From: Eledone cirrhosa
Taxonomy: Eukaryota
DNA length: 64,000 nucleotides
Direction: 5' to 3'
Assembly (NCBI GenBank): GCA_964016885.1
Contig: OZ024754.1
Span: 17,608,001 to 17,672,000, forward strand
Positions 296-61,777 of the stretch are shown in pieces. Numbering within the stretch: the first letter of the stretch is position 1; each line of letters starts with the position of its first letter. The notes under the pieces were generated by a model. The model made no database searches, was not told the origin of the DNA, and saw nothing but the letters and a program-made list of their open reading frames with translations. The position numbers were made by a program, and so were the translations under genes.

Positions 296-475
296 CTTCC
301 AACATCTTTATTTCTTCCTCCAATGATTTACATTTGGTGATCTCTTCTTCATAATCATTTTGTATTTTAATCACTTCTTGCTTCAAAGACTTCACTTCCT
401 CATCTTTTTCACTGAGACACAGAGTCAGTTCTTTCTTTATTTCATGGTATTCTAATTCTTGTTTTAATCTCATCT
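296..475 (-). CDS. Coiled-coil repeat exon, 180 nt (class A flank)
   Basis: GAAG|AG ATG AGA TTA ... TTG GAA G|GTAAAT; MRLKQELEYHE...IKMLE. Confidence 0.85.
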
Positions 476-630
476 CTTCAATTTTTTTTAGAAAACATTA
501 AATAAAAATGAAATGAAATGTTAGATTAAGATATATTTGATGTCCTTATAAATATATTTGAGAATATCTAAAGAATAATGACTTCATTCTTAAGATTATT
601 TTTAAGAAGTTATGATATCAATATATTTAC

Positions 631-810
631 TTTCCAAAATTGTTATCTGTTCCTGTAGTGATTCACACTTGGTAATCATTCCTTCATAGTTACTGTGTGT
701 TTTAATCACTTCTTCCTTGAATATCTTCACTTCCTTATCTTTTTCTATGAGATGTGTGGTCAAATCATTCATCTGTTCATTGTATTCCAATTCACCTTTT
801 AATCTCATCT
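631..810 (-). CDS. Coiled-coil repeat exon, 180 nt (class B flank)
   Basis: CAAG|AG ATG ... GAA A|GTAAAT; MRLKGELEYNE...ITILE. Confidence 0.85.
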
Positions 811-1319
811 CTTGAATTTGTTTTTGAAAAGATTCAAACAGAGGTGAAATTTTAGGTTAAGTTAGATTAGATGTCATACAAATATATTTGTGTGAATATT
901 ATATGAATAACAACTCAATTTCTTTTGTTTTGATTCAATATTTTCATATGAAATATTTACGTAATTAACTAATAATTAACCTATATGTGTCGATTTTTGA
1001 CAGCTCTGGCATTTGTGTTTGTAATTTTAAGCTATCCATTTTGTCAGCATATTTGTTTGAGAGAAAATGTGAACTTTATAATTTCCCATACATCATTTAT
1101 TTTGATATAAGAATTTGTAAGTGAATTAAGGAGAAATCAGCTAAAGTAAAATATATTTAATAAGTAAAAATTCTTTACATTACTCTAGTAATGTTACATA
1201 TTGATCTCTGAAGTAATTGAATGATTTGTATCAAATAACTTGTGTGTAAATACATTTGTACATATTTTTGTATCAGACATGGACTCTATAAGTCTGAGAG
1301 AATCAGTCTTTGTAGAGAA

Positions 1320-1508
1320 ACACCTCCGAATTCTCAGGTCCGCAGGTGGTCGGCCTGCGCCGATGGAACCGTGACTGGCTCGCTATCTCCAGTGACCTAG
1401 CCCGTGACCGTCGTGCGTGGGCTGCCATGGTTCGGGATGCCGTCAGGACAAGGGAAGAAACCGGCTCAACCCGTCCAGGGTGAATGTCGACACAAGTACA
1501 AGTAAGTA
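1320..1508 (+). mobile_element. 3' end of a non-LTR retrotransposon (RTE-like) with CAAGTA tail
   Basis: GC-rich island (GGRP.PRW...DLARDRRAW-like coding) ending CAAGTACAAGTAAGTA; CTTTGTAGAG occurs on both sides. Confidence 0.55.
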
Positions 1509-1871
1509 CTTTGTAGAGGAACTATAACTCCAAACAAATAAAACTATATGAGTTTAATGCAGATTCCATAAGCTATAAAGAAGGCCACCCATCTAGGAGA
1601 GCAGTCACTCTGATTAAAAACTGTTAGAGTAGAATATTGTATTAAGTCTAGTCAGAAAATACTTTGGTGCTAGTGACAGGATAAATTTCACCCAGCCAAT
1701 GCTGTAAGGTGGTTGGTGATAGGAATGACACCAAGATGGTGGTGCTGCTGGTGGTGTTGATGATGAAGATGCATATCCATTTTTTTCTTTAACTTGTTTT
1801 CCTTTTTCCATCTTTCCTTCTGTAGCTTCATTCCATTTGGAACTCCTGCCACTTCCCTCAATGATTAACAT

Positions 1872-2249
1872 CCATACCGACACATGCCCATACCATCACA
1901 AGCCCATACAGCCACATGTCCATACAGCCACATGTCCATACTGTCACATGTCCATTCCGTCACATGTCCATACTGTCACATGCCTATGCCGCCACATGTC
2001 CATACCATCACATGTCCATACAGCCACATGTCCATACCATCACATGTCCATACAGCCACATGTCCATGCCATCACATGTCCATACAGTCGCATGCCCATA
2101 CTGTCACATGTCCGCACAGTCCCATGTCCATACCATCACATGTCCATGCAGCCCCATGCCCATACCACCACATGTCCATACTGCCACATGTCCATACTGC
2201 CACATGTCCACACCGTCAAATGTCCATACCGTCACATGTCCATACCATC
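1872..2249. repeat. 16-bp minisatellite (CACATGTCCATACCRT), ~23 copies
   Basis: Direct inspection; the unit matches the RTE RWYGHVM coding segment. Confidence 0.9.
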
Positions 2250-2378
2250 TGTGCTTTATCCATCATACACACCAATACATCTAATAAACAACTCTAACAT
2301 ATTTTCTTTCTAAACTTTGCTCATCCTCTTTATTCAATGCCCATATCCCATTAAAATATGATATGATATTATATTTAC

Positions 2379-58209: not shown

Positions 58210-58410
58210 ATCATCATCATCATCCTTTTATGTCCGCTTTCCCCTGCTTGCAAGGATGGGACAGGTCCTATTCAGCACAGCATCTCTCCACTTGTCACGG
58301 TCCTTTGTCATCTCCTCCATGAGCTTCAGCGATCTGAGGTCTGCTCTCACCACCTCCACCCATGTTTTTTGTGGTCTTCCTCTGCTGTGTCTTCCTTCTA
58401 CTGTCCAAAT
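58210..58410 (-). mobile_element. RTE 3' fragment (related longer copy at 62947-63225)
   Basis: RGRPQKTW...MTKDRDKW; the second copy has RRLRWYGHVMRM. Confidence 0.8.
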
Positions 58411-59547
58411 GGATGTGAGTCTACATGTGAGAACACATATTTGAGAAGCTTTCGATTCTACAGTCAAGAATGAACATAATCGATCATTCCTCGAGCTGAT
58501 CGGCAGTGAAACATATGTAATATGTAATTAAATATGTATATGATGCAACACTGATTCTTTGTTCCCTAATTATTATTATCGATACTCTGCTCTCCAATAG
58601 CATCGAGTGCATATCTTGGCATACCACATGTGAACGCAATCCAATTGCACTTTTACTACTATATATATATATATAGTTACCAAGGCTATAGGAAATATAT
58701 TTTCCATACTCTCAATTACTCACTTATAAAGAAATAGTTTGAACGTAAACACAAGCCAACCATTCTCGGAGTGCAAACAAAATGTATATTTGTAATGTAG
58801 TGGTTTCACACACACACACACACACACACACACATATTTATGTTTATATAACTAACAAACAGTTTATCGCTCTACATGGCTGAATACAATAAATGTAATC
58901 TGAGTTTTTCGAATATTAATAATAATATTCGATTCGTTTGCAATTATGCACACAGCCTCTTTTAAGCCATGTCAGTAGAATGACCCTGCCATTCTTGCTC
59001 TTGTTTTGGCATGTAAACAGAACTGCAGACACTAATGTTTCTGGGTGATTACCCTTCATCAGTACAGTATACTGCTTACCTGCCAACTATCAGAACTAGT
59101 GAAAATATGATATTTTCTAAAATATACAGTGACTGATGGGCCTGATTTACATATTAGCTGACTGCGTGATCAGTCAGATCTGCATATTAGCAGATCCACT
59201 GATCAGCCAGATTTTCATATCAGCAGACAGGCCAGTCAGTTTCATGTATACGAGGGATTAATGGCCGGCTTTGCCATATTCAAATAACTAACAAATAGTT
59301 TATCGCTCTACATGGCTGAATACAATAAATGTAATCTGAGTTTTTCGAATATTAATAATAATATTCGATTCATTTGCAATTATGCAAACAGCCTCTTTAA
59401 AGCCATGTCAGTAGAATGACCCTCTGCCATTCTTGCTCTTGTTTTGGCATATATATATACACATACATATTTTTGTTTAGACAATAAAAATCCGAGTACA
59501 ATCCTGTTGAAAATGTTTCCCATGGCATTGTTTTTCTTTATATTTAC

Positions 59548-59718
59548 CTTCCAATATCTTTATCTGTGCTACACATTTTTTAATCTCTTCTTCATAGTCA
59601 GTTTTTAAATGGTTAATTTCCTCCCTCGAAGACTTCACTTCGTCCTCTTTATCACTGAGATGTTGGGTCAGATCTTTCTTTATTTCATTGAATTGAAATT
59701 CCTTTTTTATGTTCACCT
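59548..59718 (-). CDS. Coiled-coil repeat exon, 171 nt (same 3-codon deletion as 47619-47789)
   Basis: AAAG|AG GTG AAC ... GAA G|GTAAAT; KKCVA---QIKILE. Confidence 0.8.
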
Positions 59719-60658
59719 CTTTAATTTGTATTTTGAAAAGATTCAAATAAAAATTAAATGTTACGTTAGCTTATGAAATATTTCTAAAATACTTTATGAA
59801 TTGTGACTGTTTTCTTGTCAAACAGATGAGAAATATTGTCACAAATAAACACACACATATATAAACATACACACACAGGGCAGACGTGGGTGCTATAAGC
59901 CGTAGTGAAGGCCACCCCTCTAGGAGAGTAGACACTCCAAATAATAACTGATACGGGGTGGAGAGGACTCTTAAGTCTGGTAAGACAACCTTTTTTGTTT
60001 GATGACCCTGGCATGAACAGGTGAAACTCCAGAATAACAAGACTCACTATTTAGCCTTAATAAAATGAATAGTTAAACTCTACTTCAGTATTGAGTATTC
60101 TTTACTCTCAGCCATCAACCACATATGGATATATATATATATTTACATGTGTGTGTGTGAAAAGATCAGAGTGTCACTCCAGTTAGAGCTGCTACTTCTC
60201 CAAATTGAGAGATCAGAGTTCCAATACTACAAGCATGTGGTCAGAATGTCTCAAGTTTCACCCCGAGCAAGATGGTTGGATAACATCCATAAGCTTGACT
60301 GGTCTCGCTTGGATTTCCAACCAGACCAGTTGGATTGATTCTGACAGGACCCGCTGGAAGGAATGTTTGAGGGCTCTGCCCCACCCTTGACCCTCTCAGG
60401 AATAAGTGGGTGAAGAAGAAGATAAACATTTCTATTTAATGTTGTATGAATAATGACTTCATTCTAGCTGTAATGATGAATATATAAGATATATGAAGAT
60501 TTTACTGTAATTACTCAATATGTACAGATTATACAGATCACTCATGCAATACGACCTTGAAGTTTTGGGAGTAAGTTGATACATTTTTAAACTATCAAAT
60601 CACCATTTTCTGATTTGACATTGATAGACTTAAAAACAATTTAAAGAATTTCTTAATC

Positions 60659-61027
60659 TTAGAGCAACAGTTCCCAACCTTGGACTAAGTTTATAAGTTT
60701 ATGTATTTTGTTACAAACATAATACACACACATACTATTTATACTTGTTCCTGAAACATTTTTCTTTCTTGGTCCTAGAGCAACAGTTCCCAACCTTAGC
60801 TTCACTGATTTGTGAGTCAACTTGAACTAAGTTTAAAAGTTCAAGTATTTTGTTACAAACATAATACATACATACTATTCTACACTTGCTCCTTTAACAT
60901 TCCTCTTTCAATTGTTATTCTTATGATGTAATAATCAGGGAAAAGTATTATTGCAGAACTGATGGAAAGAGGAAAACATTTAAATAAATGGGATCCTTGG
61001 TAGTGAAAACTTAGGGAACCACTGGCC
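60659..61027. mobile_element. hAT-like MITE with tandemly duplicated left end
   Basis: TAGAGCAACAGTTCCCAACC at 60660 and 60776; TAGGGAACCACTG at the right end. Confidence 0.45.
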
Positions 61028-61597
61028 CACAGGCTCATCTAGCTAGAGTTTATTCCAGTTTCATGAGGCATTCAGATCTAATGGTTAAACAACTTCATTC
61101 TTTTAACCCTTTTGTGAGTGTATTTCTAATGAAATACACTGCCTATATGTTTTAATTAATTTCGAAAATAATCAAACGTTTGGAAGAATTTAATAAAATA
61201 ACAAATATTTTCATTAGTTGGTACCACAAAGACAAAGTATCCAGTCCAACCTGTCAGGTGGTCATTTTGGTGCCTCAATAATAAGTACCCTGTCTGCCCT
61301 GTCAGATGGTCAATTTTTGTTGGATCGCCGGTCTGAAGAGCAGATCGATAATGGAGTTGGAATCATAACTTCTATGGGTGACCCTGAGTCAATCTGCTGT
61401 GAAACACGTGTAACAGGTCAATACACAATAAAAATCTAAATACATGTAAATGAAACTTCATCATTTTTATTAATATATGTATATATATATATATGTGTGT
61501 GTGTGTATACACATATATGTATATGATTAAACCATAAGAAAAGTAGTACATTCCTGTAAGTAATTTTCTATCAATGGTTTTATAATAATATATTTAC

Positions 61598-61777
61598 CTT
61601 CCAATATCTTTATCTGTTTCAATAGTGATTTACATTTGATAATCTCTCCTTCATAGTCATTTTGTATTTTAACCACTTCTTCCTTTGAAGACCTCACTTC
61701 ATCGTCTTTTTCTTTGAGATGCTGGATGAGAAATTTCTTCATCTTATCGTATTCTAACTCACTTTTTACTTTCATCT
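61598..61777 (-). CDS. Coiled-coil repeat exon, 180 nt
   Basis: GAAG|AG ATG AAA GTA ... GAA G|GTAAAT. Confidence 0.85.

Follow-up and report, generated by a model that had tools for sequence, protein, structure and literature searches.

What is encoded by an array of small, mutually similar exons that fills a 64,000-nucleotide (nt) stretch of the Eledone cirrhosa genome (contig OZ024754.1, positions 17,608,001 to 17,672,000; hereafter the window), and how did so many copies come to stand in one gene? A preliminary description of the window had proposed 31 symmetric, phase 1-1 exons, belonging to a giant coiled-coil gene or to a cassette system, in a protein family that it did not recognize. 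As discussed below, these unit exons are almost certainly coding, and the gene that holds them is very probably a tandem paralog of the spindle gene NuMA. Coordinates follow window numbering, extended outside the window where needed; adding 17,608,000 gives the contig position. The sequence examined comprised the 64-kb window with flanks of 100 kb and 300 kb (464 kb of a 3.0-Gb genome), and unit copies were located with an iterated nhmmer profile.

The profile search recovered 31 copies in the window, matching the number described, and placed every one on the minus strand, which the preliminary description had not given. As summarized in Table 1, 29 copies are 180 nt long and two are 171 nt, and all 31 are free of stops. 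AG precedes each of the 31, as had been claimed, but GT follows only 29 of them, and the proposed NAAG acceptor gives way to TAG in one copy. On recomputation, the 29 splice-competent exons again amounted to 1,734 codons. The first full codon is variable (ATG in 19, CTG in 4, CTA in 2, ATA in 2, and GTG, GCG, TTG and GTA in 1 each; n = 31), and in 6 of the 31 copies an in-frame TAA runs into the acceptor. Independent small genes can be rejected, as had been argued, since the first codons vary and since in-frame stops are present in 17 of 47 flanks upstream and 25 of 45 downstream. What the data support instead are internal exons, symmetric and of phase 1-1, that belong to a single coiled-coil gene.

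The array exceeds the window. Within the 464 kb there were 49 matches, 47 of which are free-standing exons, extending from 154,475 to -5,974; of the remaining 2, one is the end of a 292-nt exon (155,170-154,879), the other that of a 3,394-nt exon (302,231-298,838). A protein search of the whole genome returned at least 48 unit matches, all inside the array/NuMA interval. Both splice sites are present in 44 of the 47 free-standing copies, and the introns of the array measure at least 151 nt. A second AG directly follows the acceptor in 31 of the 47 units, and 37 of 42 full-length units have an in-phase GT at unit nt 144 that shares its six bases with the main donor and could rescue the two copies that lack the usual donor. 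A 200-N assembly gap (window 5,299-5,498) falls within an intron of the array, and further units could be missing there. No protein with a long unit array was found when the unit profile was compared with 1.84 billion representative sequences (8 matches at an expectation value (E) of 0.001 or below, three of them from the octopod family and the others weak), and a word search limited to proteins of 105-2,000 amino acids (aa) gave 2 octopod matches.

Coding status was judged against neutral simulations that started from the natural exon end of the neighboring NuMA gene (gene A, described below) and followed the tree of copies. Across 45 codon-aligned copies there were 0 stops, compared to 117 +/- 37 in the simulations (minimum 45, 300 runs); two other rate sets predicted 123 and 133. 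Prolines numbered 2, compared to 24 +/- 13 when stops were forbidden (minimum 7, 150 runs), and 8 columns were conserved at 85% or more where ~1 was expected. In 14 sister pairs the exons contained 2 gaps, both of 3 nt, while the flanks contained 55, of which 43 were frame-breaking. An average ratio of nonsynonymous to synonymous substitution rates (dN/dS) of ~1 could be accounted for if the copies were repeats without coding function, parts of a pseudogene or products of faulty assembly, and the one gap in the array might be cited in favor of this. However, the missing stops, the frame-keeping indels, the exclusion of AG upstream of the acceptors and the unbroken 9,945-nt frame of the spliced gene (both below) contradict such an origin, and the copies are too divergent for collapsed or duplicated reads, making this explanation vanishingly improbable.

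Pairwise dN/dS was 0.75 when the 180-nt copies of the window were compared (n = 29) and 0.77 over 42 copies in all, values that are not diagnostic here because wrong frames give 0.67-1.09, with 0.70 and 1.06 among the values for the two of them. Likelihood estimates ranged from 0.90 to 1.33; the average dN/dS is ~1, and this average is a mix of conserved and fast sites. On a rate grid, some codons were better fitted with a nonsynonymous rate above the synonymous one (twice the difference in log likelihood, 52.9, compared to a model with beta <= alpha and alpha free). This result is suggestive of an excess nonsynonymous rate at some codons, although it comes from 59 A-rich codons with likely gene conversion, which can inflate it. 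Since indels keep the frame, stops are absent, prolines are few and dN/dS is ~1, it is the frame and the helix that are kept, and the surface sequence is free or fast. The preliminary description had proposed purifying selection and had named a ratio near 1, together with missing junction reads, as counting against its own exon call. Such a ratio is what we found, and simple purifying selection does not describe the array, but the exon call stands because stops, frameshifts and prolines are suppressed.

The protein family, unrecognized in the preliminary description, can be identified from the neighborhood of the array. Gene A, complete at ~346,710-269,558, matches NuMA of Octopus bimaculoides (XP_014769238.1) exon by exon. 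Its giant exon (3,394 nt, 302,231-298,838, 1,131 residues) lies in a 1,162-codon open frame upstream of the array and has relatives in five octopod (Octopus, Argonauta) proteins of 2,091-2,418 aa, at 46-71% identity. The gene A Hook region is identical at 113 of 145 positions to that of the Octopus ortholog, whose N-terminus passes Pfam HOOK_N_NuMA (PF21670) with 42.6 bits against a cut-off of 27; a Pfam scan of the whole family proteins gave nothing above cut-off. The gene A tip is 71% identical to the Octopus NuMA region, and the top two PDB matches of the tip exon are human NuMA LGN-binding peptides, albeit weak (E 0.067 and 0.09). Judged by these matches, gene A is NuMA.

A second set of NuMA exons, gene B, lies downstream of gene A and encloses the array. 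The constant first and last exons that the preliminary description had proposed to seek outside the window were found: 14 exons starting from an ATG at 236,984 lie before the units, and after them come three more, the last of which ends at -17,936. In-silico splicing of 14 + 44 + 3 = 61 exons yields 9,945 nt and 3,314 aa, free of stops and with all phases compatible, while the chain without any unit has 708 aa and keeps the frame. The N-terminus of gene B is identical to Octopus NuMA at 96 of 145 positions and 71% identical to the gene A Hook region; that of a tail-bearing Octopus paralog also passes PF21670. Gene B keeps the Hook domain and ~340 aa of coiled coil. Its last exon departs from NuMA after a common KL.DY motif, enters a 19-residue hydrophobic stretch (hydropathy 2.23) and stops within 1-2 residues after this helix. 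Tail hydropathy was 1.67-2.32 in six Octopus/Argonauta paralog sequences and negative in five NuMA-type tails. The NuMA tip (LGN-binding/NLM and microtubule-binding) had no match in the 82 kb downstream of gene B, and because it lacks this tail gene B is a paralog rather than canonical NuMA. Searches of the genome with the tail exon and with the Hook exon each returned at least two family loci. Taken together, these findings identify the host of the array, with high confidence, as a tandem NuMA paralog.

Two paralogs with the tail occur in Octopus, one large and the other small, and one O. vulgaris model seemingly fuses the C-terminal part of the small paralog to the start of NuMA. The small Octopus paralog has the same 15-residue deletion as gene B, but it is the large one whose tail sequence gene B shares; Hook-domain and C-terminal trees are poorly supported and do not settle orthology. 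The Octopus/Argonauta paralogs contain 2-3 unit copies inside larger repeated blocks, compared to 45 in frame in gene B. Over their first 13 exons, genes A and B display a patchy identity of 34-100%, and some introns are also near-identical, a pattern that suggests repeated gene conversion between them.

The neighborhood also records how the unit arose, for the unit is the last 180 nt of the NuMA giant exon. Its donor is the phase-1 donor of the parent exon itself, the junction point being the same in the NuMA models of Octopus and Argonauta. Of the nine codon positions before the acceptor, seven match the parent giant exon at 67-99% and the remaining pair at 47% and 23%, while beyond -27 the match to the parent drops to 6-49%. 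The in-frame stops mentioned above lie in what was once coding sequence, before the acceptor in 17 of 47 copies, and within the 15 codons after the donor in 25 of 45. AG occurs 3 times in the 43 nt before the 47 acceptors, compared to 42 expected, and 26 times in the next 43 nt, compared to 38 expected; TAAC-type motifs are concentrated at -45 to -65. No convincing match to the branch-point flank beyond -27 was found elsewhere in the 464 kb; two orphan pieces resembling the unit flank lie at 26,405-26,473 and 60,428-60,479. In a tree of 46 copies with their flanks (the exon-14 end, the truncated copy and a 102-nt copy were left out), exons 12-16, 13-17, 14-18, 15-19, 35-43 and 39-47 paired with 95-100% support, and this regular spacing indicates that blocks of four and of eight exons were duplicated. 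The duplicate gene thus lost nearly all of its 3,394-nt giant exon, of which a 292-nt fused remnant stays; an AG within the old coding sequence became an acceptor, forming a symmetric 180-nt exon with the old phase-1 donor; and single as well as block duplications multiplied this exon.

Hydrophobic positions in the units peak at 17 cycles per 60 residues, a period of 3.53 (power 56, compared to 22 for the next peak). Because each 60-residue unit holds 17 whole cycles, the hydrophobic stripe continues across exon junctions. A single unit was predicted as a parallel, in-register dimer (0.37, compared to 0.00 for the best control; runs agreed on at least 97% of contacts; pLDDT, a predicted local distance difference test score, 85). 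Among microbial proteins the mark used for a dimer is attained in 21 of 30 solved pairs and in 0 of 23 single chains, and among eukaryotic ones in 17 of 29 pairs, but coiled coils are frequent among solved structures and the pass may therefore reflect the predictor's memory of them. The earlier reading of the array as a rod of about 250 nm holds, with 257 nm computed for the window units; the 44 splice-competent copies together amount to 2,606 residues and would add ~387 nm. The equivalent of the lost giant exon is 168 nm of rod, and the whole human NuMA rod measures ~210 nm (PMC8047419).

Exons of symmetric phase can be skipped or combined without frameshift, and the array could therefore be read in more than one way. 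Joint inclusion of the units, which we consider fairly probable, is favored by the suppression of both stops and splice-site losses (over the tree, 0 stops with ~89 expected and 2 splice-site losses with ~35 expected), by the continuous helix phase, by the array taking the place of the lost rod, and by the large Octopus paralog, whose rod is likewise rebuilt from repeats. Skipping would by comparison be possible but unlikely, and the choice of one unit among many very unlikely. If the units were independently skipped cassettes, the same membrane-tailed paralog would be made with rods of graded length, under control of tissue or stage, the chain running from 708 aa when every unit is skipped up to 3,314 aa. 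Such an arrangement fits the symmetry of every unit, the frame kept by the chain without units, the weak AAG acceptors, the tolerated loss of the donor in 2 of 47 copies and the annotated isoforms of Octopus paralogs, which differ by repeat blocks (2,418 versus 1,950 aa, with 3 versus 2 unit copies; 898 versus 851 aa). Splice sites are nevertheless strongly kept, and the shorter isoforms of Octopus, whose joins connect stretches of repeated sequence, may be artefacts of annotation; we judge an array of cassettes a somewhat unlikely account. The selection of one or a few of the 47 variant exons per transcript, as in Dscam, would imply that the variable surface matters, for recognition or conflict, and could draw on the codons with a raised nonsynonymous rate and on the divergence of the copies, which are ~72% identical in nucleotides. 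That test, however, is subject to the A-rich codons and the gene conversion noted above. Moreover, double inclusion keeps the frame, introns of at least 151 nt are too long for steric exclusion of neighboring units, the protein is predicted to be cytoplasmic, and a stop in one unit would cost only ~2% of transcripts, yet there are 0 stops. A common docking site was not found in a small test (10 duplex comparisons, five intron segments, 22 of 44 units, 6 shuffles each), in which two comparisons beat the shuffles by ~2-2.5 kcal/mol but with scattered best sites. The cassette proposal of the preliminary description thus gained nothing from the docking-site search in its Dscam-type form, which we regard as highly improbable.

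The reading that we prefer, by a modest degree of confidence, is that most copies are probably spliced in together, forming a dimeric coiled-coil spacer of great length in a protein that derives from a NuMA duplicate and is predicted to be a membrane-anchored dynein adaptor. Several observations weigh against it. In addition to the average dN/dS of ~1, sister-pair exons are 80.1% identical, lower than their upstream flanks (87.0%; downstream 81.0%), and a plain spacer does not require lower identity in the exons. The acceptors look weak (43 of 44 are AAG, with 51% pyrimidine at -20 to -4 compared to 73% in 16 other acceptors), which favors skipping. Three of the 47 copies are damaged, two lacking the usual donor and one truncated by a microsatellite and a long interspersed nuclear element (LINE) insertion. 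The imbalance between splice lesions (2) and stops (0) lends weak support to joint inclusion (P ~0.08), and copies that had died may since have been lost by deletion. Within gene B, the least certain exons are 6 and 7, linkers chosen by phase, splice signals and weak similarity, and Hook exon 5, scanned alone, had no Pfam match. Lastly, dynein binding and membrane insertion are predictions from homology and hydropathy.

The Hook domain of human NuMA binds the dynein light intermediate chain, residues 1-505 recruit and activate dynein, and the tail binds LGN and microtubules (PMC8047419, bioRxiv 2024.11.26.625568). Published work also describes isoforms of fly Mud without the tip, which are expressed in gametes and located at the germ-cell nuclear envelope (PMC12505299), a predicted C-terminal transmembrane domain in Mud (PMC12458289), a contribution of Mud to placing the oocyte nucleus (PMC10814754), and KASH5 as a membrane-bound coiled-coil dynein adaptor (PMC9242646, PMC10071310). 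Because the Hook part of gene B is kept and its tail swapped, and given tipless Mud at the nuclear envelope and KASH5, the function that we prefer is that of a dynein adaptor which is anchored in a membrane and has a long spacer. The Hook domain and first coiled coil of gene B would recruit dynein-dynactin as in NuMA, the hydrophobic tail would insert in a membrane as a tail anchor, and the array would set the distance between membrane and dynein, at ~390 nm with all 44 splice-competent copies, some in-frame skipping being tolerated. The membrane, as a first guess, would be the outer nuclear envelope or the endoplasmic reticulum (ER) of germ cells. We consider a membrane anchor likely for the tail and a dynein adaptor reasonably likely for the product as a whole, whereas placement at the germ-cell nuclear envelope is tentative, resting on the analogy with tipless Mud. 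More doubtful still is an extended version, in which skipping among the 44 exons would tune the rod of the membrane-anchored adaptor in 60-residue (9 nm) steps and diversifying selection would act on its surface, as on that of a germ-line nuclear-envelope protein in genetic conflict.

A different role would be that of a Golgi/ER tether like giantin, with a long rod and a tail anchor, in which dynein binding had been lost and the Hook domain were a relic. Gene B shares with giantin/GOLGB1 and other tail-anchored golgins a long coiled coil and, at the C-terminus, a hydrophobic helix that hardly any luminal tail follows, databases automatically name the Octopus paralog golgin B1, and the Hook branch of gene B is longer than that of gene A (0.30 versus 0.08). 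Against this, the Hook domain is intact and 71% identical to that of gene A, the golgin name is automatic, and the family, for which no golgin Pfam match was found, differs from giantin, golgin-84 and CASP in its exon-by-exon descent from NuMA. A tether of this kind is accordingly improbable.

With NuMA, Mud and LIN-5, gene B shares the Hook domain, the N-terminal coiled coil and exon structure and phases, the unit being the end of the NuMA giant exon; it differs in lacking the LGN-binding/NLM/microtubule-binding tail, in its hydrophobic helix end and in the 45 unit copies that replace the giant exon. The octopod tail-bearing paralogs (XP_014772238.1 'golgin B1', XP_014769243.1 'myosin-8', CAI9730177.1 and GAB1599846.1) have the same N-terminus, a near-identical hydrophobic tail and a rod likewise rebuilt by internal repeats, but only 2-3 unit copies. 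Activating adaptors of dynein pair a domain that binds the dynein light intermediate chain with a coiled coil bearing HBS1 and Spindly motifs; gene B, which retains the Hook domain and ~340 aa of coiled coil, would belong here if its coiled coil bears these motifs. In KASH proteins a luminal KASH peptide follows the transmembrane helix. Gene B, whose chain ends 1-2 residues past the helix, lacks such a peptide and in this differs from KASH5, although KASH5 makes a coiled-coil dynein adaptor fixed to a membrane an established design. Drosophila tipless Mud is, like gene B, a NuMA-family protein without the tip, but flies splice it from one gene (PMC12505299) whereas gene B is a separate gene; a C-terminal transmembrane domain is also predicted for Mud (PMC12458289). 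As for the exons themselves, gene B joins Dscam1 (mutually exclusive exons) and titin PEVK and nebulin (length-varying) in holding many paralogous internal exons in one gene. In gene B, by contrast, a new acceptor carved the unit out of a giant exon, whose place the units have taken, and no exclusion signal was found in the small docking-site test.

Table 1. Unit exons of the window, numbered among the 49 matches, and related features. Positions are in window numbering unless stated otherwise.
Feature	Position	Strand	Length and remarks
Unit exon 14	61598..61777	-	180 nt
Unit exon 15	59548..59718	-	171 nt
Unit exon 16	56535..56714	-	180 nt
Unit exon 17	55666..55845	-	180 nt
Unit exon 18	48604..48783	-	180 nt; usual donor lost (GT to AT), open frame; in-phase internal GT sites
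Unit exon 19	47619..47789	-	171 nt
Unit exon 20	46839..47018	-	180 nt
Unit exon 21	45951..46130	-	180 nt
Unit exon 22	44801..44980	-	180 nt; in-frame TAA at acceptor
Unit exon 23	37018..37197	-	180 nt; TAG acceptor
Unit exon 24	32343..32522	-	180 nt; in-frame TAA at acceptor
Unit exon 25	30771..30950	-	180 nt
Unit exon 26	29906..30085	-	180 nt
Unit exon 27	28941..29120	-	180 nt
Unit exon 28	27170..27349	-	180 nt
Unit exon 29	25466..25645	-	180 nt
Unit exon 30	24310..24489	-	180 nt
Unit exon 31	23004..23183	-	180 nt
Unit exon 32	21337..21516	-	180 nt; usual donor lost, open frame; holds one of the two prolines
Unit exon 33	14921..15100	-	180 nt; in-frame TAA at acceptor
Unit exon 34	13979..14158	-	180 nt
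Unit exon 35	12801..12980	-	180 nt
Unit exon 36	12470..12649	-	180 nt; preceding intron of 151 nt is the shortest of the array; in-frame TAA at acceptor
Unit exon 37	11286..11465	-	180 nt
Unit exon 38	10648..10827	-	180 nt; in-frame TAA at acceptor
Unit exon 39	9968..10147	-	180 nt
Unit exon 40	9216..9395	-	180 nt; in-frame TAA at acceptor
Unit exon 41	8642..8821	-	180 nt
Unit exon 42	2379..2558	-	180 nt
Unit exon 43	631..810	-	180 nt
Unit exon 44	296..475	-	180 nt; predicted parallel in-register homodimer
Former-coding stretch before acceptor (example)	476..502	-	27 intronic nt still matching NuMA giant-exon coding sequence; TAAC branch-point-like motifs further upstream
Gene B interior (very probable tandem NuMA paralog)	1..64000, gene outruns both window ends	-	61-exon model, 3,314 aa
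Gene B full span	contig positions 17,590,064-17,844,984	-	

Other features of the locus lie around the two genes. Past the giant-exon donor of gene A (298,838), sequence that supplies ~46 extra residues in annotated Octopus/Argonauta paralogs is intronic and contains stops in this genome. Between genes A and B there is an inverted copy of NuMA-family exons 1 and 2 (260,277-261,768, plus strand), the exon-1 region of which is 96.9% identical to that of gene A. Past the gene B stop, 221 nt at -22,693 to -22,473 (minus strand) match one of the NuMA exons of gene A (290,567-290,787) with 100% identity before running into a simple repeat; such a perfect match is that of a very recent copy or conversion. 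Intronic open frames that we take, by eye, to be remnants of LINE reverse transcriptases, long terminal repeat elements and mariner-type elements occupy 3,907-5,298, 33,131-35,180, 42,550-43,620 and 49,104-50,775 of the window, with frames presumably of the same types outside it at 68,271-70,169 and -1,057 to -194.

Tandem exon arrays and NuMA-family proteins without the tip are already known; it is their combination in this gene that is new. In the full-text literature searched, whose cover stops short of subscription journals and bioRxiv supplements, no description of an octopod NuMA paralog or of the unit array was found, although the paralog proteins are already in databases under automatic golgin and myosin names. 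The locus therefore points to a NuMA paralog, octopod-wide and with a membrane tail, that has stayed undescribed under those names, and provides a gene-level parallel to tipless Mud, which flies make by splicing. It is also a clear case in which a dN/dS near 1 masks strong selection on frame and helix. Each step from giant exon to small-exon array is visible, with the intact parent exon next door, and the 2-3 copies of Octopus and Argonauta, compared to 45 here, constitute a natural length series for the purpose of NuMA rod length.

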